From an uncultured Gammaproteobacteria bacterium (GTDB lineage Bacteria; Patescibacteriota; Patescibacteriia; UBA2196; GWA2-42-15), in assembly GCA_964573135.1 (NCBI GenBank), contig CAZNIO010000003.1:10881-74880 (forward strand): DNA of 64,000 bases. The letters run 5' to 3'. The notes under the pieces are model-generated. The model saw nothing but the letters and a program-made list of their open reading frames with translations, was not told the DNA's origin and ran no database searches. Within the stretch, counting starts at the first letter, position 1. Each line of letters begins with the position of its first letter. Made by a program: the position numbers and the translations under genes. This document shows, one piece after another, positions 12,019-51,480 of this stretch.

Positions 12019-12390
12019 TTATATTTCTTGTACATTTAAATTCGTAATGTTTTTAAAATCACGCACATTGCGTGTTATAAGAGTACTACTTGTGAAAAGA
12101 GCCGTAGCAGCGATTACACTATCTGCTGTTTTGGTCCCATACATCTGACGAAGGAGTCCGGCCGTGCGTGCAATTCTTGAGTCAAGTGGAATAATAGCAA
12201 CTGTTTCAAGCAGTTTTTCTATTTCCATTGATTCCCATGGGGTGAGACCATGAAAACCGAAAAGCTCAACCTCGGTTATTGTGGATATATATAACGGAGC
12301 GTTCTTAACTAAAATACCACCTAAAACAGAAACGACCGCTGGGTCGTCTTTTAAATAATAGATAATCGCATTGGTGTCTAGGGTGTGCAC
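12019..12390 (-). CDS. vapC: PIN-domain protein (VapC-like toxin)
   Basis: 123 aa. N-terminal MHTLDTNAIIYYL (conserved Asp), later acidic residues typical of PIN. Confidence 0.65.
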   Translation of the reverse strand: MHTLDTNAIIYYLKDDPAVVSVLGGILVKNAPLYISTITEVELFGFHGLTPWESMEIEKLLETVAIIPLDSRIARTAGLLRQMYGTKTADSVIAATALFTSSTLITRNVRDFKNITNLNVQEI

Positions 12391-12406
12391 GGGTTTAAAA
12401 GTAGAA

Positions 12407-12577
12407 CTAATTACGATCCCATTCTTTTCTCATTTTGCCAAGCTCTTGTGCGGGATCAGGCTTGTGGTTCTTCCACATTCCTTTAATATGTTGCCATATT
12501 AAAAGACGCTCCTTATTTAGAAGAAGTGGGTAGACATTTCTTATTTTTTGATTTTTTATACTGGTCTGGGTTTGCAT
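12407..12577 (-). CDS. Putative antitoxin partner of VapC (56 aa, below the track size cutoff)
   Basis: Minus-strand ORF ATG 12575-12577 to TAG 12407-12409 (MQTQTSIKNQKIRNVYPLLLNKERLLIWQHIKGMWKNHKPDPAQELGKMRKEWDRN), 16 nt upstream of vapC. Position and size fit a type II antitoxin. No recognisable fold motif. Confidence 0.35.
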   Translation of the reverse strand: MQTQTSIKNQKIRNVYPLLLNKERLLIWQHIKGMWKNHKPDPAQELGKMRKEWDRN

Positions 12578-12645
12578 ATACTTAAATTATATCAATTGGC
12601 TTGAGAAAGTCAACAACAAATATACAAATTTGTATAAACAAAGCT

Positions 12646-13839
12646 TTAAATTATAACCCTATTTTTCTTCATTATCAAAATAACTGGAATACCAATTACA
12701 AGAGCACTAATGCCAATAATAGTTAAGGCATTTATTAAGGTGTACACATCAGCCACCCATCCAAAAATTGGGACAATTAACGCATATATTAAACGGCCAG
12801 ACATACTTTGGGCTGAAAGTATGGTGGCGCGTATGTCTGAATTGGCGAGCTTGTTGATATAGTCGGTAATAACAACCTTGGAAAAGCCACGCACAAACTG
12901 GTGTAAAAAGGCAAAAGAAAAACTGAAAAGTAAAACAAAATTACTCATAAGAAGATAACTGGCACTAACTAAAAAAATGAGCATAACAAGCGAATATTTT
13001 TCACCCAATTTTTGTTCAAGTGCATGAGCATATTTTGAGCTCAAGGCAGCTACTACCTGAAAAGAAGCAAAGATAATACCAAAATACATAATATCAACGC
13101 CTGAAATTAAAAAATATGGCTGATAGAACCAGAGGACTGATTGATTGAAGCTAAAAATAATACCAGAGTAGATAATGAGCCATTTCAATTTCTTATTTTT
13201 CAACATGGAATATTTTATGATAAATATCAATTCTTTAACATATCCTTTTTTTAAAATGGGTTTATGTCTTGCGGGCTCTTTCAAGCTCAATGCAATAAAG
13301 ATGGCAATAATGATAAAGGGGATCATGACCCAAAAGGTAAGGCGATAGCTAACCTGGCCCAAAAAGCCGCCAATGACATGGGCGACGGCCATGGCAATAA
13401 GACTATAGAAAAGAACATTACCCCAAATTTTTTTATACTTTTTTTCTTGTTTCAAGCTTTTCAAGGTGTCAAAAATGAAGGCAGAGTCACTACCGGATAT
13501 AAAAGAAATACTCAAGGCCCAGAAAGCCTCTGCTAGCAAAAAATGAGAGAAACTATAACCCTCAGCATAGACTATGGTGGCGCCAAGGATCATAAGGGAT
13601 CCAATAACTAAGCTTTTTTTGCGTCCAACAACATCGGCAAAATATCCGGTGGGTATCTCAAGCAATACAACCAGAATGGCAAAAATTGATTGGAGAACCA
13701 TAATTTGTGTGAGGCTCAAGCCGTTATCCTGCCAGAACAAAACAATAATTGGAGCAAAAAAAGACAAACTTGCCAGAATTTGAAACAAGTAGAATTTAAA
13801 AATGTTACTATTTAATTTAGTTTTAGATAACTGAGTCAT
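12646..13839 (-). CDS. MFS transporter
   Basis: 397 aa, about 12 hydrophobic segments, with a GxxADxxGRK-like loop (GYFADVVGRKKS). Confidence 0.7.
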   Translation of the reverse strand: MTQLSKTKLNSNIFKFYLFQILASLSFFAPIIVLFWQDNGLSLTQIMVLQSIFAILVVLLEIPTGYFADVVGRKKSLVIGSLMILGATIVYAEGYSFSHFLLAEAFWALSISFISGSDSAFIFDTLKSLKQEKKYKKIWGNVLFYSLIAMAVAHVIGGFLGQVSYRLTFWVMIPFIIIAIFIALSLKEPARHKPILKKGYVKELIFIIKYSMLKNKKLKWLIIYSGIIFSFNQSVLWFYQPYFLISGVDIMYFGIIFASFQVVAALSSKYAHALEQKLGEKYSLVMLIFLVSASYLLMSNFVLLFSFSFAFLHQFVRGFSKVVITDYINKLANSDIRATILSAQSMSGRLIYALIVPIFGWVADVYTLINALTIIGISALVIGIPVILIMKKNRVII

Positions 13840-15362: not shown

Positions 15363-16772
15363 TTATATTAACTCCACAGGACAAAGCGTGGTGGCAGCCT
15401 CTTTAAGATTAGAGAAAGTGTCGTCCCCAATTGCTGCATTTATTAACGCTCCCCGGGCAGTAGCTTCAAAAGCTATTGGCCCATCCAAAGCACTAATAAA
15501 TAATCGAATTTCATCATTAACATCGCGATGGATAAACTTTTTGAAACATTGCTGAAAATACTTTGACCGACAAATACCTCCAGTCAAAATAATTTTTTTA
15601 ATGGGCTGTCCATTAATAACCTCTATCACCATATCTCCAACATGTGAAGACAATATCAAGGCGATTGACTGTTGCACGCTAGCAATTTTATTGCCCAATG
15701 GCAATTGAGCAAAATCAGACGGGTAGTATACTCGGTCATTTTCCTGCGTAATGATGATATTTTTTTGATTACAACTACTAAGAGCAAGTTTGTTCATCTC
15801 TGGATGATCCATGCTAGTGCACCATGATTTCTTAAAATCATAATCATACCATGACCCACAGTGATGCATCATGATGAGTGATAATTTCTTCTGGTAATAC
15901 TCAAAACTAAGAGACTTACCTGCGAGTGCCATTGTTGGCTCGCATATCCGATTCACCGTACCACTAGTACCGGCAGACACTATGATGCTTGACTCATCAT
16001 ATAACCCGCACCCTACGGCGGCGCCATGGTTATCTCCCAAGGGGGAATATATCTCCCATCCTTCTAGAATTCCTCTGATTACTCGCCATGCTGGATCGTT
16101 TCCCTGACCGGTGATATTATCAACAAACTCCCCACTTTGTATTACAGATGGAAACCAAATATAATTAATACCGACTTTATTGAGAAGGGTCTTGGCTAAT
16201 GTTTTTGTTTTTTGATCCAACAATCCATTACTTAATCCATCTGACGTACTCAATGAATCGGTATCGGTTAACTTACCGCCGATCCAATCGCCGGTGGTCA
16301 TGACTTTATAAACCCTATTCTTGAGAGATGGACATTGATTCAAAACCCACATTAACTTAACTATAATAAATCGATTTTCTATGGGTCCCACAATTTTTTC
16401 CGCACCCAACTCTTTGATGATTTTAATTTCCTTGATCTCTGGCTTGCCAAATTTAAACCGCCAGCTTAAAGCTGGAATCACTGGCTGTTTATACTGATCG
16501 AGTAGGACCATATCGTGCTGACGAACGGAGAATGACATCGACCCTCCATAAGAAAAATCCCATCCTCTATCATGGAGCTTAAAGAGGGCCTCAAGAATCA
16601 TTTTGGGCACTTCAGACAAATCATGCGCTGATTCATTCTTCCAACTGGTAGAACCTCGCATGGGAATTGACGCTAAGTCAAATTCACCTGACTGGCTCAT
16701 AACGAAGAGCTTAAGTGCACTAGTACTTAAATCACCACCTGAGTGTCTTGCAATTTTTTTTGTCATTATCAA
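15363..16772 (-). CDS. FGGY-family carbohydrate kinase (divergent)
   Basis: GDNHGAAVGCGL, SAGTSGTV, ILTGGICRSKYFQQ…, EATARGALINAAIG match FGGY conserved blocks. Confidence 0.6.
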   Translation of the reverse strand: MIMTKKIARHSGGDLSTSALKLFVMSQSGEFDLASIPMRGSTSWKNESAHDLSEVPKMILEALFKLHDRGWDFSYGGSMSFSVRQHDMVLLDQYKQPVIPALSWRFKFGKPEIKEIKIIKELGAEKIVGPIENRFIIVKLMWVLNQCPSLKNRVYKVMTTGDWIGGKLTDTDSLSTSDGLSNGLLDQKTKTLAKTLLNKVGINYIWFPSVIQSGEFVDNITGQGNDPAWRVIRGILEGWEIYSPLGDNHGAAVGCGLYDESSIIVSAGTSGTVNRICEPTMALAGKSLSFEYYQKKLSLIMMHHCGSWYDYDFKKSWCTSMDHPEMNKLALSSCNQKNIIITQENDRVYYPSDFAQLPLGNKIASVQQSIALILSSHVGDMVIEVINGQPIKKIILTGGICRSKYFQQCFKKFIHRDVNDEIRLFISALDGPIAFEATARGALINAAIGDDTFSNLKEAATTLCPVELI

Positions 16773-16954: not shown

Positions 16955-17030
16955 GCGCTCATAGCTCAGCTGGTAGAGCAGCTCCCTTTTAAGGAGAAGG
17001 TCCTAGGTTCGAATCCTAGTGGGCGTACCA
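16955..17030 (+). tRNA. tRNA-Lys (anticodon TTT), CCA encoded
   Basis: Cloverleaf: acceptor GCGCTCA/TGGGCGT, D-arm GCTC/GAGC, anticodon loop CTTTTAA, T-arm CTAGG-TTCGAAT-CCTAG, 76 nt. Confidence 0.9.
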
Positions 17031-17062
17031 CAAAAAACATCTCGAGTAGAGGTGTTTTTTGG
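17031..17062 (+). terminator. Intrinsic terminator after tRNA-Lys (ACATCTC-gagta-GAGGTGT + T6)
   Basis: 7-bp hairpin followed by TTTTTT immediately after the CCA. Confidence 0.6.
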
Positions 17063-17090
17063 TTAAAGGGGATCTGCTAGTAGCTCCGTC
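17031..17090 (+). repeat. Direct repeat copy L (terminator + GGTTAAAGGGGATCTGCT module)
   Basis: About 55 of 60 nt are shared with 19180..19236 (aaaaa[a/g]cat[c]ctcg[a/c]g[t]agagg[g]tgtttttt[t]ggttaaa[g/a]gggatctgct[a/c]g[t/c]agctc). Confidence 0.7.
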
Positions 17091-17196
17091 TGGCGCGCCA
17101 CAGGTATTTTAGTGTTTTTTGATTCAAGCCCAAAGGTGCTGTATAATAACAGTGAAAGGTCGTGATTTAAATTATTAATCTTAAAATTATAATTTT

Positions 17197-17826
17197 ATGA
17201 AAAAATTAGGTTTTATTTTAATCTTAATGCTTTTGGTAGTCGGAGTTACGGTCACGGCCAATGCAGCTAGTAAGGCTCCGGGTAAAGGAGGTAGTGATAA
17301 ATGTACCACCATTCAAAGTGGTGAACTTTTAGCCTCTGATGGAACTGTAATCGAACTTGGCTTTGATGCTTGGGGATATAATTATCAAGGCCGTATGTTT
17401 AAAGGTGGTTATTGCGACGCTTATCGCGATGCAGCCTGGTGCCAAGAATGGACTGAGGATAAATTGGCCATGAAATGGAATGACGCTTGGTTATCAAATA
17501 AGGATTGTGACGGGGATGGTTTTCTTGATCGCCATTATGGCCATGATTCATATATTGGATCTGGCGCTTGGCTGACAAATCATCAATCAGGCGAATATGA
17601 AGAAGAAGGTGAAACATGTAAGTGGAATTACTTTGTCAAAATTGTGGCCGCTCCAGCTGACGCTTATGTTGAAGATGGTTATTGGCATACAGCAGAAGGT
17701 GCAGAAATTGGAGAGGTTATTTGGGGAGCTTTTGCTATTATTCAGGAAGTAGAAAATGATCCTTGCGCTGGAGCTCATGGCATGCAATATGTTTCTCCTG
17801 ATAGGGCGGGGCTAGGTAATTGGTAA
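17197..17826 (+). CDS. Secreted Cys/Trp-rich protein with a DxDxDG calcium-binding-like motif
   Basis: Signal peptide MKKLGFILILMLLVVGVTVTANA. Contains DCDGDGFLDRH. No known family. Confidence 0.6.
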   Translation: MKKLGFILILMLLVVGVTVTANAASKAPGKGGSDKCTTIQSGELLASDGTVIELGFDAWGYNYQGRMFKGGYCDAYRDAAWCQEWTEDKLAMKWNDAWLSNKDCDGDGFLDRHYGHDSYIGSGAWLTNHQSGEYEEEGETCKWNYFVKIVAAPADAYVEDGYWHTAEGAEIGEVIWGAFAIIQEVENDPCAGAHGMQYVSPDRAGLGNW

Positions 17827-17891
17827 AAAGGGATATATTAATAAGACCCACTCAAACAATTGAGTGGGTCTTTGACTACTTAAAAATGGCG

Positions 17892-17975
17892 TTAATAAAT
17901 CGTTTATGACACTGTAGGCATATAGATATATTCCTCACTTTTAGCAATTCTGGTTCTAACAGCGTCCACGACCCC
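17892..17975 (+). repeat. Repeat A copy 1 (conserved ~85-nt non-coding element; candidate sRNA)
   Basis: ttaataaa…tatgacactgtaggcatatagatatattcct… is shared with copies at 19091 and 20804. The 3' part differs in a 12-nt block. Confidence 0.7.
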
Positions 17976-17989
17976 ATAAAAATTATTAA

Positions 17990-18015
17990 ACCCCCTATTT
18001 TAGGGGGTTTTGAAG
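17990..18015. terminator. Bidirectional terminator (CCCCCT-atttt-AGGGGG + T-run)
   Basis: Perfect 6-bp GC stem with an A-run before and a T-run after. Serves Repeat A1/ORF 17197 (+) and the dehydrogenase gene (-). Confidence 0.65.
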
Positions 18016-18046
18016 TTGAGTAAAAGTACCTACAAGCTGGTGTGTC

Positions 18047-18997
18047 CTAGTTCACTTTATTTCTAGGCTTTTCCAAAATAAAAGACTGCAGATTCTCTAT
18101 AAGAATACCTTGTTGTTTTTCTATTGCCTCTTTGGTCTTTACTGCAATCGATGGATATAATATTACGTTTTTGGTTTTCATTAGCTTATTTTTATGTTCG
18201 CTTGGAATTGTGTCAAAATACGTTTGTATAAAGCAGAATCTATTTTCATTAAGATTCTTAATTAAGTTATCAAAATCAAAAACATCCGTATGGCTTATGG
18301 AAATTATTACTGAATTTTCTTTAATATTATTTAAGACAACCCCATTCATGATCGAATTTGTTGTTTTATCATCAGGAATAAACAATCCTATAATATCACT
18401 TTCCTTGCACAAATCATTAAGCTTACGAAATTGGATGCCTCCTTGCTCTAGATTTTCTTTTTTTGATTTGGAAAAATGTTTGACATTCATTCCTAAGCCC
18501 AGTGCAAGTTCAGCAACTCTTTTACCAATCCTGCCTAAACCAATAATGCCAAAGGTTTTGTTTTTTAATTCCCAGCCAAGATATTGGTCAACCCCAAAAT
18601 TATTCTTTTTAACATTGGCTCGCGCATTTTCTAGCTCTCTTGCACAGGAAAGCAAGGTAGCAAAAACAAATTCTGCAATACTATTATCACAATATCCCGC
18701 TGTGTTTGTCACAACAATATTTTTTGAAGCTGCATAATCAACATCAATTTTGCTAACTGAGATTGAATCAGTTCCTATATATTTTAAATTTAGAGCGAGG
18801 TCAATTATTTTTTTATTAATCTTAGTTAAGTATTTTATCAAAAGAACATCTGCATCTTTGACCTCTTTATATAAACTCTGTTTATTAGAACTGCTTACAA
18901 AAACCAAAAAAATTGATAGGGATTTTAATCTATCAAGAACATCATTTTTTAACGACTTTTTAGTGTAATCGATAAGGACAATTTTATTCACTTTCAT
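18047..18997 (-). CDS. D-isomer-specific 2-hydroxyacid dehydrogenase family protein (glycerate/phosphoglycerate dehydrogenase-like)
   Basis: Rossmann motif GIIGLGRIGKRVAELALGLGMNV. 316 aa is typical for the family. Confidence 0.75.
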   Translation of the reverse strand: MKVNKIVLIDYTKKSLKNDVLDRLKSLSIFLVFVSSSNKQSLYKEVKDADVLLIKYLTKINKKIIDLALNLKYIGTDSISVSKIDVDYAASKNIVVTNTAGYCDNSIAEFVFATLLSCARELENARANVKKNNFGVDQYLGWELKNKTFGIIGLGRIGKRVAELALGLGMNVKHFSKSKKENLEQGGIQFRKLNDLCKESDIIGLFIPDDKTTNSIMNGVVLNNIKENSVIISISHTDVFDFDNLIKNLNENRFCFIQTYFDTIPSEHKNKLMKTKNVILYPSIAVKTKEAIEKQQGILIENLQSFILEKPRNKVN

Positions 18998-19090
18998 TGG
19001 GTTACTGGCATTTAGTTGATGATTTAATTTTAGCTAAATTATGGGAAAGATGCAAAATTGTCAGGATCTACATTGTTTTTTGTATTGCAT

Positions 19091-19179
19091 AATTAATAAA
19101 GAAATTATGACACTGTAGGCATATAGATATATTCCTGACTTTCCTGGATTCTAGTTCTAACAGAGTCCACGACCCAGTA
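19091..19179 (+). repeat. Repeat A copy 2
   Basis: Identical to copy 3 over ~89 nt (aattaataaagaaattatgacactgtagg…gtccacgacccagta). Confidence 0.75.
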
Positions 19180-19236
19180 AAAAAGCATCCTCGCGAGAGG
19201 GTGTTTTTTTGGTTAAAAGGGATCTGCTCGCAGCTC
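19180..19236 (+). repeat. Direct repeat copy R (terminator CATCCTC-gcga-GAGGGTG + T7 + GGTTAAAAGGGATCTGCT)
   Basis: Near-copy of the tRNA-Lys 3' flank 17031..17090. The embedded hairpin + T-run is a terminator for Repeat A2. Confidence 0.7.
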
Positions 19237-19311
19237 AAAAAAATTGCCTAAACTTAATTTTTTATTTATACTTAAATGTATATATAATAATTAATTATCA
19301 ATAATAAAAGT

Positions 19312-20778
19312 ATGAAAAAATTTATTTTTATGGCCTTATGCATAATTTTGCCATTCAACAATATATCAGCTAATAACGAGGTTACATTAGAAATTATTAC
19401 TCCCAAAGAGGGGCAGTATCTTGCCGTAAACGACTCTATTACTTTTAGTTGGGTGCAAACAGGCTTAGATAAGCTAATGCTAGAAGCACAAATTTGTTGG
19501 CATGATGATATGCAGAGCTTATCCGCAGTAAAGGAAATACATTGTGCTGGAAATTCGGATATTACAAATGGGCTTATTGATGTCGACACTAATGCAAGCA
19601 ATAATTCATTTGAATGGCAACTCCCCAAAATGTTTAAGTCTGGTTTATATAAAATATGGGCTAAAGGTTATGCTAATACTGGGACAAGCGATTCTGTTTA
19701 TTTGGAAGATAAGATGAATCAATATGTAATAATAGATAAGGGAGACCAGAATTTTAGTTTAATTAATTCTACTAGTTTAAATAACATCAGTCAGAACAAG
19801 GTGATTGTTGATATTGGCACTAACAAGCTTTATGCAAATGCGTCAAGATATTTTGTTAGATGGAAAACTCCATGTAACGGCCAATACGCTAATGTCTGGC
19901 TGGTAGCAGAGGTTTTACAAGATGGAACCGAGATAGTTATTCCTATGACTTTTTATGAATGGCATTATGAAACGAATAAATTAAATTTAGATGTGTTCAA
20001 TAATAAGAATATATATTATGGATTAATTCCCGGTTCTGGAAGTACAGACAAAACTCAGCACCATCAATTACCTAGTGATCCCAGTTCGGGTAAGTTTAAT
20101 TTTGCACAAATTTTAATTAAAAGATCACCTGCGGGTGAATATTATACCGAACGAGTGTCTAGCAACTTATATACAAAAGGAAAAGAGCATTATAAGATAA
20201 GGGTTGATGTTCATGGTAACAATTGTTCAGCTACAGGATTAAGTAGATATATTTATCCTACTGCTGTTCTAGATGAACCTATACCATCGCTACCTTTGGA
20301 TAATGTTGTTAATGATTCCCCTGAGACAACCACTATCAGTGATAATAACAACACTTCGCCTAAACTAGTTGCAAAAAAAGCAACAATTGATAAAACATTG
20401 AGTAATAGGCTCAAAGGCAAACTCCTCCTCCAAGTCCAAAACCGTGGCCGTATTTGGTATGTAAATCCAGGTGACGCCAGGCGACATGAGGTAACATTCG
20501 CCAATGCTTTACCTTTATTCGAAAAGTTATCATTGGGTATTACTGATGCTGATTTAGATAAAATTCCAATGCACAATGATAATTGGACATCATCGATTGG
20601 TGATAGATTAAAAGGTAAAATACTCTTACAAGTACAAGATAGAGGAAGAATTTGGTACGTAGATTTCAATGGTAAAAAATGGGAAGTAACATGGAAAAAT
20701 TTAATGACGTTGTTTGAAAGTTTGGCTTTGGGTATCACTGATAGTGATTTGGATAAGATACAGATGGAGGGATTATAA
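19312..20778 (+). CDS. Secreted protein with two C-terminal ~55-aa tandem repeats
   Basis: Signal peptide MKKFIFMALCIILPFNNISA. C-terminal repeats LKGKLLLQVQNRGRIWYVNPGDARRHEVTFANALPLFEKLSLGITDADLDKI / LKGKILLQVQDRGRIWYVDFNGKKWEVTWKNLMTLFESLALGITDSDLDKI. Confidence 0.7.
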   Translation: MKKFIFMALCIILPFNNISANNEVTLEIITPKEGQYLAVNDSITFSWVQTGLDKLMLEAQICWHDDMQSLSAVKEIHCAGNSDITNGLIDVDTNASNNSFEWQLPKMFKSGLYKIWAKGYANTGTSDSVYLEDKMNQYVIIDKGDQNFSLINSTSLNNISQNKVIVDIGTNKLYANASRYFVRWKTPCNGQYANVWLVAEVLQDGTEIVIPMTFYEWHYETNKLNLDVFNNKNIYYGLIPGSGSTDKTQHHQLPSDPSSGKFNFAQILIKRSPAGEYYTERVSSNLYTKGKEHYKIRVDVHGNNCSATGLSRYIYPTAVLDEPIPSLPLDNVVNDSPETTTISDNNNTSPKLVAKKATIDKTLSNRLKGKLLLQVQNRGRIWYVNPGDARRHEVTFANALPLFEKLSLGITDADLDKIPMHNDNWTSSIGDRLKGKILLQVQDRGRIWYVDFNGKKWEVTWKNLMTLFESLALGITDSDLDKIQMEGL

Positions 20779-20803
20779 TTAAGAAATAATAGGATATTTT
20801 TTA

Positions 20804-20891
20804 ATTAATAAAGAAATTATGACACTGTAGGCATATAGATATATTCCTGACTTTCCTGGATTCTAGTTCTAACAGAGTCCACGACCCAGTA
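20804..20891 (+). repeat. Repeat A copy 3
   Basis: Identical to copy 2 through gacccagta. Followed by its own distinct terminator. Confidence 0.75.
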
Positions 20892-20894
20892 CCA

Positions 20895-20921
20895 AAAACC
20901 CCGACAAATGTCGGGGTTTTT
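20895..20921. terminator. Bidirectional terminator (CCCCGACA-aat-GTCGGGG, A-run/T-run)
   Basis: Perfect 8-bp stem. Downstream of Repeat A3 (+) and of hup (-). Confidence 0.7.
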
Positions 20922-20950: not shown

Positions 20951-21244
20951 CTAGAGTACTGCGTCCTTGGCAGCTTTAGCAACACGGAACTTAACTACAG
21001 TCTTAGCAGGGATCTGGATGGTTTCACCAGTAGCTGGATTTCTACCTTCGCGAGCTTTTCTGTCTACCTTAACTAATTTCCCAAGTCCAGGAAGAATGAA
21101 TTCGCCGCTGTTTACAACTTCGCTATAAGCTAGCTCAGTTAGATTCTCCATGAAAGAGATGATATCTTTCTTACTCATGTCGTTTTTCTCGGCAAGTGCC
21201 TGCATGAGTTGAGATTTTGTCAATTTGGCCATATTTTTTTTCAT
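20951..21244 (-). CDS. hup: DNA-binding protein HU
   Basis: …GFGKFEV-like core (ILPGLGKLVKVDRKAREGRNPATGETIQIPAKTVVKFRVAKAAKDAV). Possible start at the internal Met (21232). Confidence 0.85.
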   Translation of the reverse strand: MKKNMAKLTKSQLMQALAEKNDMSKKDIISFMENLTELAYSEVVNSGEFILPGLGKLVKVDRKAREGRNPATGETIQIPAKTVVKFRVAKAAKDAVL

Positions 21245-43636: not shown

Positions 43637-43911
43637 CTGGAAAATATTTCACCCATATTACCCTCCAATAGCGCAAGGATAATTAGGAAAACCTGACTAT
43701 CCTTAACTTGAGGCTACTCGATCCGGTTAGGAGGGGTTCCTTCACTTTCGCCACTATTAGAGGAAAATATAAGCAATATATATATTGATCAATTGTCAAA
43801 TTATATTAACATGAATTACAAAACTTGTCAAGTAGCGATAAACATGTTATATTAATTTATATTAAAAATGCTGTAAAAAGCGTTGTTTTTTAATAACTTT
43901 GACCCCGAAAA

Positions 43912-43986
43912 GGTCCCTTCGTCTAGTGGTTAGGACACTAGGTTTTCATCCTAGAAACAGGGGTTCGATTCCCCTAGGGACTACCA
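43912..43986 (+). tRNA. tRNA-Glu (anticodon TTC), CCA encoded
   Basis: Anticodon arm CTAGG-TTTTCAT-CCTAG, T-arm AGGGG-TTCGATT-CCCCT, acceptor GGTCCCT/AGGGACT (G1-U72). Confidence 0.85.
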
Positions 43987-43987
43987 A

Positions 43988-44020
43988 AGAGGACTCACTC
44001 GCAAGATTGGGTCTTTTTTG
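43988..44020 (+). terminator. Putative terminator after tRNA-Glu (imperfect hairpin + T6)
   Basis: aagaggactcactcgcaagattgggtctttttt is about 80% identical to the module after Repeat B2 (47088..47121). Confidence 0.4.
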
Positions 44021-44172
44021 ATTGGAATGTTAACGCAGGAAGTGATTTTCTAGCTTCAATTGAAATATAGATAAGTTGGTTGCAGAAAATATCTATGAAA
44101 TGTACACATTTGACAGATAAAAAAGTTTTATGTATACTTAAAATATATTGAATAATTAAAAAAGTTTTAAAT

Positions 44173-45378
44173 ATGATTAAAAAATACATCAAACGCCCTA
44201 TATACTTAGATCAAATTAAGCCCTTTATTGACAAGGATATTATTAAAGTTATCATCGGACAACGACGAGTTGGTAAAAGTTATTTGTTGTTCCAAATAAT
44301 GGATGAGATAAAAAAGAAAAATAAAACAGCTAATATTATTTATATCAACAAAGAATTAAATGAATTTGAAACAATAAAAAATGACAAAGACTTATTGGAT
44401 TATATTAAAAAAAATAATAAGAATAAGAAGAGTTATGTTTTTATTGATGAAATACAGGATATTCAAAATTTTGAAAAGGCCTTAAGAAGCTTGAAAGCTG
44501 AGGGGAAATATGATATCTACTGCACTGGCAGTAATGCTAATTTGCTATCAAGCGAAATAGCCACTTATCTTAGCGGTCGATATATTGAGATAAACGTTTT
44601 TGGATTAAGTTATGTTGAATTTTTACAATTTCATAATTTGAAGGAAGATACAGATTCATTTTTAAAATATATCAAATATGGTGGTTTGCCTTATTTAATA
44701 AATTTAGATTTAACTGACGAAATTGTTTATCATTATTTAAAAAGTATTTATAACACAATTCTATTGAAGGATGTTGTCAGCAGATTTAATATTCGTAATG
44801 TTTCATTTTTAGAAAGTTTAATTGACTACCTGGCTGATAATACTGGTAGCTTAGTTTCTTCTAAGAAAATTAGTGATTTTTTAAAATCACAAAAAATTAA
44901 TATTTCAACAAACATTGTCTTGGATTATTTATCTTTTTTAGCAAATGCATTCTTTATTTTCAAAGTCCAAAGATCTGAGGTACAGGGTAAAAAAATATTT
45001 GAAATTAATGATAAATATTACTTTGAAGATCTTGGGCTCAGACATTCCTTAATTGGTTATAAGCAGGTCGATATAAATAAGATTTTAGAAAATTTAGTTT
45101 TTTTACATTTACAAATTTTAGGCTACAAAGTAACAGTTGGGCAACTGAAAGAAAAAGAAATTGATTTTGTGTGTGAAAAAGAAAATAAAAAAATATATAT
45201 TCAAGTGGCTTACTTAATTAATGATAAAAATAAAGATAGGGAGTTTGGAAATTTATTACAAATCAAGGATAATTATCCTAAAATAGTTGTTTCAACTGAT
45301 GAATTAATAGACAACAGTGAATATAAAGGAGTAAAACATTTTAATATTAGAAATTTTTTAACCATAACATCTTTTTAA
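44173..45378 (+). CDS. AAA-family ATPase with DUF4143-like C-terminal domain
   Basis: Walker A GQRRVGKSY, Walker B …VFIDEIQ…. 401 aa, architecture typical of AAA_14+DUF4143 ATP-binding proteins. Confidence 0.7.
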   Translation: MIKKYIKRPIYLDQIKPFIDKDIIKVIIGQRRVGKSYLLFQIMDEIKKKNKTANIIYINKELNEFETIKNDKDLLDYIKKNNKNKKSYVFIDEIQDIQNFEKALRSLKAEGKYDIYCTGSNANLLSSEIATYLSGRYIEINVFGLSYVEFLQFHNLKEDTDSFLKYIKYGGLPYLINLDLTDEIVYHYLKSIYNTILLKDVVSRFNIRNVSFLESLIDYLADNTGSLVSSKKISDFLKSQKINISTNIVLDYLSFLANAFFIFKVQRSEVQGKKIFEINDKYYFEDLGLRHSLIGYKQVDINKILENLVFLHLQILGYKVTVGQLKEKEIDFVCEKENKKIYIQVAYLINDKNKDREFGNLLQIKDNYPKIVVSTDELIDNSEYKGVKHFNIRNFLTITSF

Positions 45379-45407
45379 GTTTGCTAAATTTTATACACTT
45401 TACAACC

Positions 45408-45479
45408 CTGGAATCACAAGATGCCACCTCCTAATATCCCCCACTATTTGTTTTAAATTCTTTAAACAATGGTCTACCA
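45408..45479 (+). repeat. Repeat B copy 1 (~72-nt conserved non-coding element)
   Basis: ctggaatcacaagatgccacctcctaatatcccccactatttgttttaaattctttaaacaatggtctacca. About 90% identity with copies at 47018 and 47989. Confidence 0.75.
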
Positions 45480-45500
45480 TTCCAGATTTCCCCTTAGATC

Positions 45501-45548
45501 GCCCGCCCCTTGGGCGGATGAATTCTCGGCGCTTCGCGCCGTTTTTTT
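45501..45548 (+). terminator. Tandem GC hairpins + T8 after Repeat B1
   Basis: CCGCC-ccttg-GGCGG followed by GGCGC-ttc-GCGCC, then gttttttt. Confidence 0.6.
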
Positions 45549-45807
45549 GTTTTATCTAATTTTTGAGAGTTGTTTGGTTTGAAAAGTTTTGTAAGTATGA
45601 AAATATAAGGTCGTCACTTGCTATTTACTTGGGACGACTTTTTTATTGTAAATTGGTTTAATCTTACGAAATTGCCCCTTATTTTAGAGGGTTTTGGGGT
45701 TGGGCAATGTGGACTTTTTCTATTGCATAATATATAATCAAGTCAGATAAAAATACATACAGACTCTAAGAAACAAGTAAGTAAATATCAATACAAATAA
45801 TACCCCT

Positions 45808-46803
45808 ATGATGATCAATAAAAGTACATATATTTTTGGTGGCGGAGATTCTGATGGATTGCTTGGCATTGCCACAATATTAAAAAAAGTAAATGATGCT
45901 TTTTTCTCTTTTACTTCCCCTAGAACCTTACATAGTCTAATCCATGATCTTGTAAAAGGAACTAACGGTAGTGTCTATATTGTAGATTTAGCAATAGATG
46001 CTTCAACATATAAAGATTTATTTAAAGAAATAGAAGGACGGCCTGGATTTGATAGTTATTTTTTTGACCAACATAATTTACCCGCTGGCGTATCCAAAGA
46101 GGACTTGCCGTTCACTGATTTATCAATTGATAGTGCGGTATCTAGCTGTGAAAATACATACGTTACAATTGGAAGCGATCTGGATCCTATAATTCCAGCC
46201 ATGGCTTCCTTAAATGACGGCATTTCTGATACTGAAAAAATAAGGGAAGCACAAAAAATTCATGGGGAGAAACTATATTCAAATGCTAAAATATTAAAAT
46301 TTGGTTTGGCATACAATATTAAAGATAATAAATTTAAACGTCAATTAGTGTATGATTTTAAAGAGGGCAAATATCCAGAATCTATTCCTGAATTAGTAGA
46401 TAGATACAAAAAAGGCCTTATACGGTGGGAAGAAATTAAAAAGATGGCTAATGAAAGGAAAAAAAGCCTTACACATCTAGCGTATGGTTTGTTCCCAAAT
46501 TTGAAAGGGGGGTTTACTAACTTACTAGCAGCATACCTAGCAGAAAGCACTGAAAAATTAGTTGGGGTTAGTATCCTTGAAACTGACCGCACCCTGCAAA
46601 AAATGAATATTATTTCAAATGATCCATCACTGAATATTGGTTTGTTTGTACATAAAGTAGCAAACAAATTTAATGGTTTTGGCGGGGGTAGTATTTCTAG
46701 CGCTGGGGCTACTTTACAGAAAAAGGAGACTACAAACTTTCTGCAAAACCTTAATAAAGAGATTGGAGATTATAAAAAATTATTAAAAAGCAATCAAGAC
46801 TAA
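45808..46803 (+). CDS. Hypothetical protein, possible DHH/DHHA1-like phosphoesterase
   Basis: N-terminal IFGGGDSDGLLG (DxD-like motif I), …VDLAID…, …FFDQHN… (degenerate DHH), C-terminal …FNGFGGGSIS… (DHHA1 GGGH-like). Weak assignment. Confidence 0.45.
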   Translation: MMINKSTYIFGGGDSDGLLGIATILKKVNDAFFSFTSPRTLHSLIHDLVKGTNGSVYIVDLAIDASTYKDLFKEIEGRPGFDSYFFDQHNLPAGVSKEDLPFTDLSIDSAVSSCENTYVTIGSDLDPIIPAMASLNDGISDTEKIREAQKIHGEKLYSNAKILKFGLAYNIKDNKFKRQLVYDFKEGKYPESIPELVDRYKKGLIRWEEIKKMANERKKSLTHLAYGLFPNLKGGFTNLLAAYLAESTEKLVGVSILETDRTLQKMNIISNDPSLNIGLFVHKVANKFNGFGGGSISSAGATLQKKETTNFLQNLNKEIGDYKKLLKSNQD

Positions 46804-46807
46804 AAAG

Positions 46808-46930
46808 ATGACCAGAAAAAACATTGAAATAATTTTACCAGAAGTATCGCAAGACACTATTAAGTACGACTTGCGCAAAATGAAAGAAAAAGGCTTAATT
46901 GTCCAAAGTGGTGAGTCTGTAAATACATAG
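46808..46930 (+). CDS. Small ORF (40 aa), possible winged-helix fragment or gene remnant
   Basis: MTRKNIEIILPEVSQDTIKYDLRKMKEKGLIVQSGESVNT starts 5 nt after the stop of the preceding gene and resembles the C-terminus of a wHTH regulator. Below the track cutoff. Confidence 0.25.
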   Translation: MTRKNIEIILPEVSQDTIKYDLRKMKEKGLIVQSGESVNT

Positions 46931-47017
46931 TATGAAGCTAATTTTTAGTTAAAAAAACTACCTAAAATTTAACCGCAATTAGAAGCGATCCCGAATAATT
47001 AATTAAGTATTTAATTC

Positions 47018-47087
47018 AGGAATCACAAAATACCATCTCCTAATATCCCCTACTATTTGTTTTAAATTCTTTAAACAGTGGTCTACC
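47018..47087 (+). repeat. Repeat B copy 2
   Basis: caggaatcacaaaataccatctcctaatatcccctactatttgttttaaattctttaaacagtggtctacca. Ends in CTACCA like a tRNA 3' end. Confidence 0.75.
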
Positions 47088-47093
47088 AAAGAA

Positions 47094-47121
47094 TACTCAC
47101 TCGTAAGAGTGGGTGTTTTTT
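47094..47121 (+). terminator. Intrinsic terminator after Repeat B2 (CACTC-gtaa-GAGTG + T6)
   Basis: Hairpin + T-run. The sequence resembles the tRNA-Glu flank. Confidence 0.5.
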
Positions 47122-47151
47122 GTTTAGGCTAATATTTATGCTATAATACAA

Positions 47152-47769
47152 ATGTTAACTAAATTAAACAGTATGAAAAAGTATTTTAAAAAATCTAATC
47201 CAAAAATAAAAATTAATACAATTTATGTTTTTATTGATGCTTCAAATGTCTGGAATGCGGTCAAGGCTGAAAAGAAATTTATTGAATACAAGAAGATTAA
47301 AAATTGGTTGAAAAAGAATTTTAATGCTACTAATGTTGAAATTTTTTATTATGATGCCTACCCCAAAGATGGGACAAGGGAATATAGCCTAGATGGTAAA
47401 CATAGATTTTTTACCTATCTAAAAAAAGGTCTCGGCTTCACGGTGCGTAAAAAAGAATTAAAAAGAATTACCATTACTAGTAAAGATGGGGAATCTATCA
47501 TGGAGAAAGGTAATATGGATATAGAGATGGTTATTGATGCGATCCATAATATGAATAAATATGATACTGCTGTTTTGTTTAGTGGAGATGCTGATTTTTT
47601 GGCACTAGTTAATTATTTAAAAAATGGTGGTAAAAAAGTCTATATTTTCTCCTCAAAAGATAATATATCTCGCGAACTTAAAACTGGCGGGAATGGATAT
47701 TTTGATGTAAGGGATATAAAAGAATTCTGGGGTAAGGATTTGAAATATCGTATAAATAAGCAAAAATAA
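47152..47769 (+). CDS. NYN-domain (LabA-like) putative ribonuclease
   Basis: …IYVFIDASNVWNA… and …VLFSGDADF… acidic residues, typical of the NYN/LabA-like PIN-related fold. 205 aa. Confidence 0.65.
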   Translation: MLTKLNSMKKYFKKSNPKIKINTIYVFIDASNVWNAVKAEKKFIEYKKIKNWLKKNFNATNVEIFYYDAYPKDGTREYSLDGKHRFFTYLKKGLGFTVRKKELKRITITSKDGESIMEKGNMDIEMVIDAIHNMNKYDTAVLFSGDADFLALVNYLKNGGKKVYIFSSKDNISRELKTGGNGYFDVRDIKEFWGKDLKYRINKQK

Positions 47770-47988
47770 AACCACCCTCAACTAAGAGGATGGCTCTAGG
47801 ATGTATAACCCTAACAGTTCTATGGAAGAACCGAAAGACATTATTAATATACACTTTTTTAATAAAAATGTCAAATTTCATCCACAGGGTGTCAAAATAG
47901 CATTATTATCAAATATTTATCTGATATATTAACTATATCAGATTATATCAATTTAAGGGATGTTAATGGTGAGCAATAGTCCGTAACT

Positions 47989-48059
47989 CAGGAATCACAA
48001 AATACCATCTCCTAACATCAGCCACTATTTGTTTTAAATTCTTTAAACAATAGTCTACC
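47989..48059 (+). repeat. Repeat B copy 3
   Basis: caggaatcacaaaataccatctcctaacatcagccactatttgttttaaattctttaaacaatagtctacc. Confidence 0.75.
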
Positions 48060-48249
48060 GAAGAAGACTTCTCCTCGCGAGTGGTCTTTTTTGATTTGTA
48101 GATTAGAAAAAAATAGAGTTTCTCAGTTTTTACGTGATTTATAGATTGAAATAAGGATTTGGTTTATTTCAATAAATGGCATATTATTACAACATAAATA
48201 ACGACATTGTAAAGATATAAATTATCAAGAAAAAACTATAAAATCTTTA

Positions 48250-48633
48250 GTGACAGCGATAAGTTATGTTGTTTCACTTATGGCTTTAGGTTTTATTTCA
48301 TTTCTTGTTTCCATCGGCTTATCTTGGAGTCGTTGTGATTTGAAATGCGAGGTATCTCACTTTTTATCTAGTGAGCTACTGGCTATATTTTTTTGGCCGG
48401 TGATGCTCATAGGCGACATTGATAACCTTGTTTTCGTATTGATTTTTTGTGCTCTTTTTAATATTCTTTTTGTTTATTTTATTTTGCGTTTAATTATAGC
48501 GAAGACGCGGTTGTCAAATAAACAAATTATTTTAATAATTATTATCGGTTCTTTGGTAATTGCTCCTATTTTACCGATTATTGGATTTAACAGTGAATTC
48601 TATCGCCAGTTTGTAATGGACTTCTGGTCTTAA
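48250..48633 (+). CDS. Small integral membrane protein (127 aa, GTG start)
   Basis: Four hydrophobic segments. No family assignable. Confidence 0.45.
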   Translation: MTAISYVVSLMALGFISFLVSIGLSWSRCDLKCEVSHFLSSELLAIFFWPVMLIGDIDNLVFVLIFCALFNILFVYFILRLIIAKTRLSNKQIILIIIIGSLVIAPILPIIGFNSEFYRQFVMDFWS

Positions 48634-48940
48634 AAGTCTTTTTTGATTTCGATTCAGTTGTGATTATTTTTTTACACACTATATCTAATTTTTAAATTGA
48701 CCTTATTTTTTATAATTGTCTGAAAAACTTCAATACCTCCTCCACCAAAGTTTTTCAAAGGAATAAGGCATATAAGCATCAGAGATTTTTTAAAAAGTAC
48801 TTCTTTTTAATATTGAGCAACCAAAACCCAATATCTGAAGCCATTTATGCAAGCCTATTGGCCTAACCCTATACACAACCTGCTTAGTCCTGCCAAGACC
48901 CTTGCAAAATACTATATTTATGCTAATGTTTAATCAATAG

Positions 48941-49008
48941 AAACAGTTTGTGATTCTGGTATTATAAAATACCGTTTTTTAATATCAGCGATTATTTGTT
49001 GCAAATTC
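48941..49008 (+). repeat. Partial/rearranged Repeat B-like segment immediately upstream of tRNA-Val
   Basis: …gattatttgttgcaaattctttaaataatgg matches the 3' half of Repeat B. Upstream tttgtgattctggtatt is the inverted form of the Repeat B 5' segment gaatcacaaa…atacc. Confidence 0.5.
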
Positions 49009-49009
49009 T

Positions 49010-49086
49010 TTAAATAATGGGGCACTTAGCTCAGTTGGCTAGAGCATCTCGTTTACACCGAGAGGGTCGGGGGTTCGAGTCCCTCA
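49010..49086 (+). tRNA. tRNA-Val (anticodon TAC), CCA encoded
   Basis: Acceptor GGGCACT/AGTGCCC, anticodon arm TCTCG-TTTACAC-CGAGA, T-arm GGGGG-TTCGAGT-CCCTC. Confidence 0.9.
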
Positions 49087-49117
49087 GTGCCCACCAGAAA
49101 AACTAACCCATGCTTAT

Positions 49118-49369
49118 ATGAAATATTTTTTTAGTTTTTTAGCTATTGTAGCTGGATTCTTTTTAGTTAAATATTCCAATAACATTGTGAATAGCTTTGG
49201 GCGTAGTGCCTGGGCTGAACATTATCTTGGATCCTACGGAGGTACCAGAGCATTAATTAAAATGATCGGCATTCTTTTTATAATAGGTGCATTGTTGGTT
49301 GTTAGTGGATTAATGAATACAATTCTTTACTCAATCTTTTCACCGACCATAAGTAGTATGTCATATTAG
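49118..49369 (+). CDS. Small membrane protein (83 aa) between tRNA-Val and tRNA-Ala
   Basis: Two hydrophobic helices. Position only. Confidence 0.4.
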   Translation: MKYFFSFLAIVAGFFLVKYSNNIVNSFGRSAWAEHYLGSYGGTRALIKMIGILFIIGALLVVSGLMNTILYSIFSPTISSMSY

Positions 49370-49378
49370 TATAAATAA

Positions 49379-49451
49379 GGGCCGCTAGCTCAGTTGGTAG
49401 AGCACCTGCTTTGCAAGCAGGGGGTCAGGAGTTCGAGTCTCCTGCGGTCCA
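49379..49451 (+). tRNA. tRNA-Ala (anticodon TGC), CCA not encoded
   Basis: Acceptor GGGCCGC/GCGGTCC with the G3:U70 Ala identity pair. Anticodon arm CCTGC-TTTGCAA-GCAGG. Confidence 0.9.
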
Positions 49452-49461
49452 AAAAAGACAT

Positions 49462-49881
49462 ATGATAAATAAGTATCAAAAATTCCACGTAGGCATAAAT
49501 GTAATTGTAGTCAAAAATAATCAATTGCTTTTGGGCAAAAGGAAAAATGTTTATGGAGCTGGAACTTGGGGTATGTCAGGTGGCCACTTAGAAGACATGG
49601 AAGGAATGAAAGATGCGGCAGCTCGTGAACTATTTGAAGAAACCGGTATAAAGGCCGAGGAATATATTTTTTCTGATATAGTCAATGATCGACGCGATAA
49701 TCATTATTTACAAATAGGTTTTGTGGCAAAAAATCATAAGGGTGAACCTCAGGTGAGAGAGCCTGATAGATGCGAGGAGCGGAAATGGTTTGATTTAGAT
49801 GATTTGCCAGAGAACATATTTCCGGGACACGTTGAGAATATAAGATTATATTTGGAGAATTCAAATTTTGGTGATAATTAG
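49462..49881 (+). CDS. NUDIX hydrolase
   Basis: Nudix box GGHLEDMEGMKDAAARELFEETG. Start moved to MINKYQ… because the track ORF start (49411) lies inside tRNA-Ala. Confidence 0.8.
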   Translation: MINKYQKFHVGINVIVVKNNQLLLGKRKNVYGAGTWGMSGGHLEDMEGMKDAAARELFEETGIKAEEYIFSDIVNDRRDNHYLQIGFVAKNHKGEPQVREPDRCEERKWFDLDDLPENIFPGHVENIRLYLENSNFGDN

Positions 49882-50674
49882 TTATATGAAACAAGATCCT
49901 CAATTTAAAAAGGTAGCAGTTGAATCAGCCAAACAAGCTGGTAAGGTTATATTAAAACATTTTGACAAGATAGCCAGGAAAAATTTAATGGTAAAGAATA
50001 AGTATGAGATTGTAACCCCGGCTGATTTAGCAGCAGAGAAGATAATTCTTAAGAATATTAAAAAGAATTTTCCAAGTCATAGAATTTTATCCGAAGAGGA
50101 AGGTAAAACTGGGGCTGAAAAATCAGAATACTTATGGGTGATAGACCCCTTAGATGGGACAACTAATTTTTCGATGGGTAATCCCCTATTCAATGTATCA
50201 ATTGCATTATTTAAAAATGATAAACCAATACTCGGGATAATTTACGTACCATTTTTAAATAACTTATATCTAGCGCAAAAAGGCAAAGGAGCTACTTTAA
50301 ATGGAAAGAAAATAAGAGTATCAACGGTAGGTAAAATAAAAGATGCATTTTTGACTTTTTGCCATGGGTATAATGAGAAGAGTGTTAAGAAAGCGATTAA
50401 GATATATAGTAAGTTAAAGTTTGAGGCAAGGGATCTAAGACAAATCGGAGCAGCGGCCATTGAATGTGCCTGGGTGGCACAAGGTAAAACTGAAGCAATT
50501 ATGATACCCGGAGTAAATGTGTGGGATGTGGCAGCCGGAGCTCTACTCATACGGGAAGCGGGTGGCATAGTAAGTGATATGATGGGACATGAATGGGATA
50601 TACATTCAGAAGGTATTATTGCAAGTAATAAGGTGATAAATGATCAGCTTATACGAAGAGTGAAGAATATATGA
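49868..50674 (+). CDS. suhB: Inositol monophosphatase family protein
   Basis: …WVIDPLDGTTNF… and …WDVAAGALLIREAGG… motifs. Confidence 0.8.
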   Translation: MVIISYMKQDPQFKKVAVESAKQAGKVILKHFDKIARKNLMVKNKYEIVTPADLAAEKIILKNIKKNFPSHRILSEEEGKTGAEKSEYLWVIDPLDGTTNFSMGNPLFNVSIALFKNDKPILGIIYVPFLNNLYLAQKGKGATLNGKKIRVSTVGKIKDAFLTFCHGYNEKSVKKAIKIYSKLKFEARDLRQIGAAAIECAWVAQGKTEAIMIPGVNVWDVAAGALLIREAGGIVSDMMGHEWDIHSEGIIASNKVINDQLIRRVKNI

Positions 50675-50892: not shown

Positions 50893-50922
50893 CTTTTTAA
50901 GATTTACTATATTAAATATCAT

Positions 50923-51440: not shown

Positions 51441-51480
51441 TGACATTGCCATACCCAATAAAAAATGGTATAATTACAAT

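Follow-up and report, generated by a model that had tools for sequence, protein, structure and literature searches.

The 64-kb stretch of contig CAZNIO010000003.1 analysed here (the window), whose sequence is also found within JGI 3300005915 contig Ga0075122_10000042, encodes an FtsZ protein that groups with those of Candidatus Kuenenbacteria-like Patescibacteria. Its tRNA-Lys(UUU) gene is followed by a segment that ends next to the gene for an HU-like DNA-binding protein and that contains, in this order, a hairpin (T1) with an adjoining module (module 1), a gene encoding a 209-aa Cys-rich protein, a first copy of a repeat (Repeat A1), a dehydrogenase gene, a second copy of the repeat (A2), a second hairpin and module (T2 and module 2), a gene encoding a 488-aa protein and a third copy of the repeat (A3) (Table 1). 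An earlier note on this DNA had identified hairpin and module as a block that recurs downstream, and had read the two copies either as direct repeats of the tRNA flank or as a shared 5' leader of the two protein genes. The content that it assigned to the interval between the copies (the Cys-rich protein, Repeat A1, the 2-hydroxyacid dehydrogenase and Repeat A2) was confirmed here, the genes from open reading frames (ORFs) and Pfam matches, as was the location of both copies upstream of genes for signal-like proteins, the modules starting 136 and 101 nt before the respective ATGs. Repeat A3 lies outside the coordinates that the note covered, and it missed that the second copy of the block is not free-standing, forming instead the immediate 3' flank of Repeat A2.

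The tRNA-Lys locus in the window and in related genomes

The comparative analysis of the locus made use of contigs that carry an FtsA-FtsZ-HU block, namely L025 (GCA_043823865.1 JBDRTS010000029; FtsZ 83% identical) and L027/L028 (FtsZ 81% identical), and of L023 (JGI 3300009008 Ga0115649_1087241), the closest relative among the contigs compared (FtsZ 90%). In relatives with FtsZ at 77% identity the HU synteny is lost and the comparison of the locus is uninformative. In L025, L027 and L028, the FtsA-FtsZ-HU block is followed by one bidirectional terminator and then directly by tRNA-Lys on the opposite strand, with the tRNA-Lys and HU genes converging on a terminator that is common to both. Beyond tRNA-Lys, L027 presents the same beta-CASP, IF-2B and RuBisCO genes as the window.

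The tRNA-Lys gene of the window is orthologous to those of L025 and L027, with which it shares 95-97% identity, and beyond its CCA end the alignment shows no similarity between its 3' flank and that of the relatives. A block composed of GTACCAAAA, a CCCCGAC-type hairpin and the HU stop codon is kept in all four sequences aligned (window, L025, L027 and L023), and is preceded by the body of tRNA-Lys in L025 and L027 and by Repeat A3 in the window. Since this native junction of GTACCA and terminator now lies 3.86 kb away from tRNA-Lys, all of 17031-20888 (3.86 kb) is, by this alignment, an insertion between the CCA end of tRNA-Lys and the ancestral terminator.

The ancestral junction (GGGCGTACCA joined to AAAACCCCGAC) has as its counterparts in the window a left junction of the insertion, in which GGGCGTACCA is joined to CAAAAAACATCTC, and a right junction, in which GACCCAGTA is joined to CCAAAAACCCCGAC; at the latter, Repeat A3 passes from ..CGACCCAGTA into the ancestral remnant (CCAAAAACCCCGAC, 20889-20921). 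The only sequence common to the tRNA end and the far end of the insertion is GTACCA (20889-20894). The diagnostic string defined for the empty site is GGGCGTACCAAAAACCCCGAC, and that for the joint of a circular form of the whole insert is CGACCCAGTACCACAAAAAACATCTCGAG.

These data agree with the earlier note in placing the footprint of an insertion at the 3' end of tRNA-Lys, the segment being missing in L025, L027 and L028 when the tRNA-Lys locus of related genomes is inspected as the note had proposed, and they revise its account of what was inserted. The native terminator has been displaced to 20889-20921, and the block copy adjacent to the tRNA is therefore not its own flank, as the note had assumed, and would have arrived with the insert. 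The inserted segment spans 3.86 kb and not 2.15 kb, and the second copy of the block would represent an internal joint between two cassettes.

Variation at this locus extends to other members of the lineage. In L023 (2340-2600), tRNA-Lys is missing next to the HU terminator, its place being taken by GGTACC, unrelated sequence and a 171-aa ORF without family, and the GTACCA/terminator junction hence appears to have been used more than once, with a different insert in this contig. In L025 (9238-9406), a 19-nt fragment from the 5' end of tRNA-Lys, in direct orientation and with the same sequence as in the tRNA of the window, is located ~150 nt upstream of the intact tRNA-Lys gene, and no Rfam match was obtained for the GC-rich spacer between them; this fragment is a putative additional recombination scar at tRNA-Lys. 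The upstream side of tRNA-Lys is variable too, given that the genes encoding an FGGY-family kinase, an MFS transporter and a PIN-domain protein, together with a 56-aa ORF (window 12019-13839 and 15363-16772), are missing from the syntenic region of L027. The best homologue of the FGGY-family kinase is 51% identical, and the next ones, with Planctomycetes proteins among them, show ~40-44% identity. The genes around this best homologue, like those around a homologue of the 209-aa protein (P0257), were uninformative.

Table 1. Features mapped at the tRNA-Lys locus of the window; L010, L023, L025 and L027 are comparison contigs described in the text.
Feature	Position	Strand	Evidence
tRNA-Lys(UUU), intact, predicted insertion target	16955..17030	+	ARAGORN; Rfam, 68 bits
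T1, intrinsic-terminator hairpin AAAAAACATCTC-GAGTA-GAGGTGTTTTTT, predicted left end of inserted DNA	17032..17060	+	fold; L010 alignment
Module 1, with 17063-17078 as reverse complement of the tRNA-Lys anticodon arm	17061..17105	+	14/16, 2/2000 shuffles
209-aa Cys-rich protein, signal-like N-terminus (cargo 1)	17197..17826	+	ORF; 3918 homologues
Repeat A1, divergent	17882..17983	+	~85-89% identical to A2/A3 over core
D-isomer-specific 2-hydroxyacid dehydrogenase (cargo)	18047..18997	-	Pfam PF02826/PF00389; NCBIfam matches below cut-off
Repeat A2, intact unit with T2 and module 2	19083..19184	+	100% identity of 19090-19179 with 20802-20891
T2, terminator hairpin of Repeat A2, AAAAAGCATCCTC-GCGA-GAGGGTGTTTTTTT, predicted left end of cassette 2	19180..19210	+	folds; L010 alignment
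Module 2, H1 only, truncated after AGCTC	19211..19236	+	16/17 to tRNA-Lys reverse complement, 0/2000 shuffles
488-aa protein, signal-like N-terminus, two C-terminal repeats (cargo 2)	19312..20778	+	ORF
Repeat A3, predicted right end of inserted DNA, ending ..CGACCCAGTA, joined to CCA and ancestral terminator	20795..20896	+	alignment
Ancestral tRNA-Lys 3' end remnant GTACCA and bidirectional terminator shared with HU (AAAAACCCCGACAAATGTCGGGGTTTTT)	20889..20921	.	alignment with L025, L027 and L023; terminator scan
HU-like DNA-binding protein, conserved neighbour of tRNA-Lys in relatives	20951..21244	-	Pfam PF00216; synteny

The repeated terminators, modules and Repeat A

The recurrence of the block 2.15 kb downstream was confirmed by local alignment, although the 55 of 60 identical nucleotides originally reported proved slightly generous. 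The two copies stand in direct orientation at a spacing of 2150 nt, with the first abutting the 3' end of tRNA-Lys, and they align (17032-17086 with 19180-19236) with ~50 matches over 58 columns and four 1-nt indels, a score reached by none of 500 shuffles. An ungapped core (17055-17086 and 19205-19236) is identical at 29 of 32 positions. Allowing for up to three mismatches, the 18-mer GGTTAAAGGGGATCTGCT is found in the 64 kb only at 17061 and 19211, with 0.03 occurrences expected.

Both copies of the block open with a hairpin followed by a T-run. As judged by single-sequence folds, T1 and T2 present the features of intrinsic (Rho-independent) terminators (-20 to -25 kcal/mol and 6-7 T), and the region 17031-17100 folds with -24.7 kcal/mol (z -3.2). 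T1 is located directly 3' of tRNA-Lys and T2 directly 3' of Repeat A2, and their stems differ by one extra C-G pair, such that pairing is preserved. A simple terminator scanner missed both hairpins, probably due to their short G-C core. In T1 and T2, and likewise in both hairpins (Ta and Tb) of L010, an unrelated metagenome contig (ERZ795044 NODE-52699) that is not syntenic with the window, the + strand forms a T.G pair where the other strand would present a C.A mismatch. The strand-specific nature of this pair indicates that T is a + strand terminator inherited as homologous DNA. T1 is nearest to Tb and T2 is nearest to Ta, and the tRNA-Lys/T1 junction of the window (GCGTACCACAAAAAACATCT..AGAGGTGTTTTTTG) is identical to that of L010 Tb.

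The modules that follow these terminators correspond to inverted fragments of the tRNA-Lys gene. In module 2, 16 of the 17 nucleotides of TTAAAAGGGATCTGCTC (19213-19229) agree with the reverse complement of tRNA-Lys positions 22-38, and the module of L010 matches the reverse complement of tRNA-Lys at 16/16; across the three modules, such matches were obtained in 0-2 of 2000 shuffles. The 3' edge of the anticodon loop is precisely where the match to tRNA-Lys stops, and an nhmmer profile of the three T+module copies also matched the antisense strand of the tRNA-Lys genes in the window, L025 and L027. In module 1, the anticodon-arm copy and the AGCTCC that follows it form a palindrome (H1), next to which lies a GC-rich palindrome (H2'). 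This AGCTCC is ambiguous: taken as the reverse complement of the D-arm, it would extend the similarity into that arm, but it also corresponds to the anticodon stem in direct orientation, which is the reading favoured by the L010 sequence. Both modules of the window share a G-to-T change in H1 with respect to L010, which identifies them as sister copies, and they look like truncated remnants of a tRNA-Lys-derived element that is seen in full on L010.

Repeat A is a 102-nt repeat with three copies in the window, all of them within the 3.9-kb insertion. A conserved TAATAAA box lies 8-9 nt upstream of the core of the repeat and a terminator follows each copy, that of Repeat A1 being a bidirectional terminator of its own (17988-18010). 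Repeat A and its terminator are hence probably a small transcription unit. In its consensus fold, the repeat forms an imperfect hairpin of 15 bp around a variable loop of 22 nt. Its interpretation as a tRNA pseudogene or tRNA-like element was rejected, with ARAGORN detecting nothing and 1417-1563 of 2000 shuffles reaching its either-strand alignment score to tRNA-Lys. Searches of Repeat A and the module against Rfam 15 returned only tRNAs above the gathering threshold; the sub-threshold matches were driven by the terminator, and the best of them (BTnc231) scored 34 bits against a gathering score of 80. A dispersed repeat of the miniature inverted-repeat transposable element (MITE) or repetitive extragenic palindromic (REP) type was also discarded, as there are only three copies, in a single insertion, and none in the loci of the relatives.

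The identity between Repeats A2 and A3 covers exactly 90 nt (19090-19179 and 20802-20891), and beyond these their flanks differ. We designate as cassette 2 the segment 19180-20891, comprising T2, module 2 and the 488-aa gene. A contig from a different sample than that of the window (L037; JGI 3300022858) joins window positions 21494 to 20802 with positions 19179 to 18316 at 100% identity. Its order is HU, terminator, Repeat A and dehydrogenase, without T2, module 2 or the 488-aa gene, and the corresponding diagnostic joint runs from the dehydrogenase side through Repeat A into CCAAAAACCCCGAC. Other short contigs end inside Repeat A. We consider that L037 more likely represents a real subpopulation without cassette 2 than a join introduced by the assembler.

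The arrangement of Repeat A, terminator and module as an intact unit (A-T-module) is seen at A2-T2-module 2 (19083-19236), where GACCCAGTA is joined to AAAAAGCATCCTC, and on L010, the single other locus identified in a metagenome pattern scan for Repeat A. No further copies were detected with nhmmer profiles on the loci of all relatives. In L010, a copy of Repeat A (82-85% identical) is followed by the T2-like hairpin Ta and then by the module, which runs into a strongly folding stretch of ~135 nt (L010 2150-2330, minus strand; z = -6.5 versus shuffles). This stretch contains the tRNA-Lys blocks AGCTCC, TAAGGAGAAGG, GGTGCGAATCC and GCGTACCA, in order and between perfect hairpins, one of them with a GAAA loop, and ends with the same ..GCGTACCACAAAAAACATCT..AGAGGTGTTTTTTG sequence as the tRNA-Lys/T1 junction of the window. 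Neither ARAGORN nor Rfam recognised anything in this stretch, which might represent either a structured RNA of tRNA origin or a composite att region. After the unit, L010 carries this additional structured sequence and a convergent gene, with no co-oriented ORF.

Origin of the inserted DNA

The insertion starts with T1 and module 1 and ends with Repeat A3. It is thus a circular permutation of the A-T-module unit, which is recreated when its two ends are joined. Such a relation between the ends is what would be expected of a circle opened at the A/T boundary and inserted at the tRNA/terminator boundary. We consider it probable that the locus is a stack of cassettes without an integrase, in which A-T-module units form the joints, cassette 2 has been gained and lost via Repeat A and the module is a vestige (scar or former att core) of a tRNA-Lys-targeting element. 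Under this model, a first circular cassette would have recombined where an RNA gene's 3' end meets the A-run of the terminator behind it, with the tRNA end (..GCGTACCA/AAAA) joining the end of Repeat A (..CCAGTA(CCA)/CAAAAAA). The second cassette, comprising T2, module 2 and the 488-aa gene, would then have entered via a single Campbell-type crossover in Repeat A, which would have left the exact 90-nt duplication of A2 and A3, and the reverse of the same crossover would remove cassette 2, as in L037. The recombinase may have been supplied in trans, or its role may have been played by the homologous recombination system of the host. The module, in turn, would most likely have been inherited from an element targeting tRNA-Lys, as its scar or erstwhile att core, and would be carried along with the cassettes without function as a regulatory signal.

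Several observations weigh against this model. The module is inverted relative to the tRNA, and simple integration into tRNA-Lys does not yield an inversion. In line with the earlier note, which reported no integrase, neither an integrase nor a transposase or any other recombinase was found among the ORFs of at least 90 aa in the 64-kb window. L037 may be an assembler join through the 90-nt repeat, and an A x A event requires nothing beyond RecA. The tRNA end and the end of Repeat A share only GTA/GTACCA and an A-run, and this shared sequence is so short that site-specific and microhomology-mediated joining are inseparable. Furthermore, the three distinct sequences of Repeat A, which are the only ones, display three wobble-type one-sided changes, one broken pair and 0 compensatory pairs, and the fold of the repeat is no better than that of shuffles (z about 0; single-strand DNA folds with z from -0.85 to +1.2). 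The unit is carried by only one other locus (L010), so that any family it defines is tiny. Five exact-pattern DNA scans of viral contigs yielded 0 matches, the 10 matches returned by species-representative genomes were all in unrelated taxa and close to the number expected by chance, and BLASTN searches against phage and plasmid collections matched the tRNA alone.

Among the alternatives, the one that best withstands the evidence, and which we nonetheless regard as unlikely, dispenses with cassettes altogether. It proposes that a flexible spot was filled with DNA from a sister lineage via homologous recombination in the tRNA-Lys and HU flanks, with Repeat A being a multicopy small RNA gene and the T and module sequences decayed local duplications of the tRNA-Lys locus. 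Such an origin would fit the lack of a recombinase encoded nearby, the conserved -10-like box and oriented terminator of Repeat A and the variable neighbourhood of tRNA-Lys in the lineage, as seen in the FGGY kinase, MFS and PIN genes missing from L027 and in the 19-nt fragment of L025. It is at odds with the circular permutation that relates the insertion ends to the A-T-module unit, with the exact 90-nt duplication around cassette 2 and the matching empty variant, with the presence of the unit on the non-syntenic contig L010 and with the different insert found at the identical junction in L023.

A more far-reaching version of the cassette model, which we deem rather improbable, would have Repeat A, the terminator and the tRNA-derived palindrome constitute the recombination site of an undescribed, trans-mobilised cassette system of the Patescibacteria. 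In such a system, circles of one or two genes would insert at the boundary between the 3' end of small RNA genes and their terminators, with tRNA-Lys as the primary and Repeat A as a secondary site. The system would possibly follow an integron-like logic with other sites, and its recombinase might be carried by phages, since the 209-aa cargo gene is also found beside a RusA-like gene.

We assign a low probability to the possibility, put forward in the earlier note, that the two T+module copies are attL/attR-type repeats of the tRNA flank resulting from one site-specific insertion, or segmental duplication, of 2.15 kb. That the copies are direct repeats at a distance of 2150 nt, with the first at the tRNA 3' end, and that they are sister copies by virtue of their shared G-to-T change in H1 with respect to L010, speaks for this explanation, but the native flank is a different terminator that now lies 3.86 kb away, and the second copy is contiguous with Repeat A2, as in the L010 unit. 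Moreover, the sole indel variant observed (L037) has its end points in Repeat A and not in the T+module copies, and the genes that follow the two copies are unrelated.

Marginally less credible still is the notion that the module has been kept as RNA or DNA complementary to tRNA-Lys, for instance as a decoy of, or antisense to, the anticodon arm, or as an att core still active with a tRNA-Lys-specific integrase that is encoded elsewhere. Between the window and L010, the conservation of its 16-17-nt complementarity is no lower than that of Repeat A, and in every copy the complementarity stops right at the 3' edge of the anticodon loop. Yet the module is situated after a strong terminator and before the next promoter, and is hence probably not transcribed; the copies in the window are progressively truncated with respect to L010, in a pattern of decay, and the insertion point is the tRNA's 3' end and not its anticodon loop.

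Last, a role of the block as common leader (as contemplated in the earlier note) or operator acting in cis on both secreted-protein genes, which would agree with the location of the copies 76-136 nt upstream of genes whose products have a signal-like N-terminus, is very improbable, because the module is an inverted tRNA-Lys fragment that follows a terminator and precedes the predicted promoters at unequal spacing (33 versus 8 nt from the -35 box), the hairpin and U-run would stop upstream transcripts instead of leading into a gene, the L010 unit is followed by structured sequence and a convergent gene with no co-oriented one, the two downstream proteins are unrelated, and the motif occurs only twice in the 64 kb even though further secreted-protein genes are present in the window.

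Relation to known systems and accessory genes

Integron cassette arrays are composed of single-gene cassettes with end repeats of ~100 nt, arrayed by a fixed primary site, and some clusters of attC sites lack an integrase. In attC, the R'' (RYYYAAC) and R' (GTTRRRY) boxes lie on the 5' and 3' sides, respectively, and the folded bottom strand presents extrahelical bases, with IntI and attI located beside the array. As in these arrays, a repeat of ~100 nt with a long imperfect hairpin and a variable loop ends the cassettes at the tRNA-Lys locus, and loss between repeats appears precise. In contrast to them, R'' and R' are not in the right arrangement, there is no significant single-strand fold of Repeat A, no IntI was found, the neighbours of the array are tRNA-Lys and the FGGY kinase and the joint is positioned 3' of the repeat, at the terminator. 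The identification of Repeat A as an attC site was rejected on its R''/R' arrangement and its fold; the only near-match to the attC motif, from a reading of the sequence, is TTCTAAC on the 3' arm, with GTAGG as its partner.

T1, T2 and the CCCCGAC hairpin resemble the Rho-independent terminators shared by convergent genes in that a stem and then a U-run close an RNA gene at its 3' end. T1 and T2 differ from such terminators in that their sequence is conserved between loci and genomes and includes strand-specific G.U pairs, which argues that they travel as homologous DNA and have no independent origin.

The locus also shares properties with the tDNA islands defined for the Islander database (PMC4383910), including insertion exactly at the 3' end of a tRNA that remains intact, absence of the segment in relatives and accessory cargo of mixed GC content. 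Unlike these islands (PMC4383910), it lacks an integrase gene, its far-end tRNA piece is only GTACCA (6 nt), with no recognisable partial tRNA, its repeats are the non-tRNA Repeat A and an inverted tRNA fragment, and its size is only 3.9 kb. Similarly, it parallels the tycheposons of Prochlorococcus and their remnants (bioRxiv 10.1101/2020.12.28.424599) in being a tRNA-seeded islet in a streamlined genome, with tandem stacked units in which newer ones displace older ones, subpopulations without a unit and degenerate, integrase-less remnants with tRNA fragments. The hallmark tyrosine recombinase and the replication module (primase/helicase) of tycheposons are missing from the locus, and its one- or two-gene units are separated by Repeat A, T and an inverted 17-nt tRNA fragment and not by direct partial tRNAs (bioRxiv 10.1101/2020.12.28.424599). 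The lack of an integrase or other hallmark genes places the locus outside both the Islander and the tycheposon classes, as would the apparent lack of a direct partial tRNA at the far end. From this comparison, the locus would operate as a tRNA-seeded genomic islet, resembling integrons in cassette logic only.

The Patescibacteria (Candidate Phyla Radiation, CPR) have tiny genomes with few recognised mobile elements, and their acquisition of accessory surface and secreted proteins is therefore poorly documented. At this locus, such acquisition by cassettes at the 3' end of a tRNA gene would be resolved to the base, with an apparent empty-site variant in the same lake population. If recombination in trans did take place at the A-T-module unit, a new mechanism of small-cassette mobility would be at hand; if it did not, the locus would constitute a resolved but ordinary flexible islet next to a tRNA gene.

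Regarding the cargo, the 209-aa protein has 3918 homologues (~63-81% identity) in Patescibacteria, DPANN archaea, Anaerolineae and Gemmatimonadota, with 59 invariant columns, a conservation that is unusually strong for an unannotated and apparently horizontally spread protein. It returned no match in Pfam, PHROG, NCBIfam or PDB, and its AlphaFold model is poor (predicted local distance difference test (pLDDT) score of 57.5). Contig L006 (ENA ERZ27315763 k141_122510) carries the 209-aa gene within positions 1-968, 99.3% identical to the window from 17169 on, directly downstream of an ORF for a RusA-like resolvase and without tRNA-Lys. This suggests that the gene has a second, phage-like context in the same lake system and has been exchanged with a phage-like element; in a viral scan at the protein level, the 209-aa sequence found nothing. 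The C-terminal repeats of the 488-aa protein are ~45 aa long each (RLKGK.LLQVQ.RGRIWYV ... LGITD.DLDKI), and, like the 209-aa protein, it matched nothing in Pfam, NCBIfam, PHROGs or PDB. A tandem gene duplication in situ was rejected, as the 209-aa and 488-aa proteins, encoded downstream of the two block copies, are unrelated to each other. Their genes have a GC content of 42.5% and 35%, respectively, against 30% in the dehydrogenase gene.

Elsewhere in the window, the region 43900-52400 presents low GC content (0.28-0.33), and genes for AAA_14/DUF4143, NYN-domain and AbiEii-toxin proteins are interspersed among its four tRNA genes (Glu, Val, Ala and Gly). A further flexible or defence region associated with tRNA genes is probable here.

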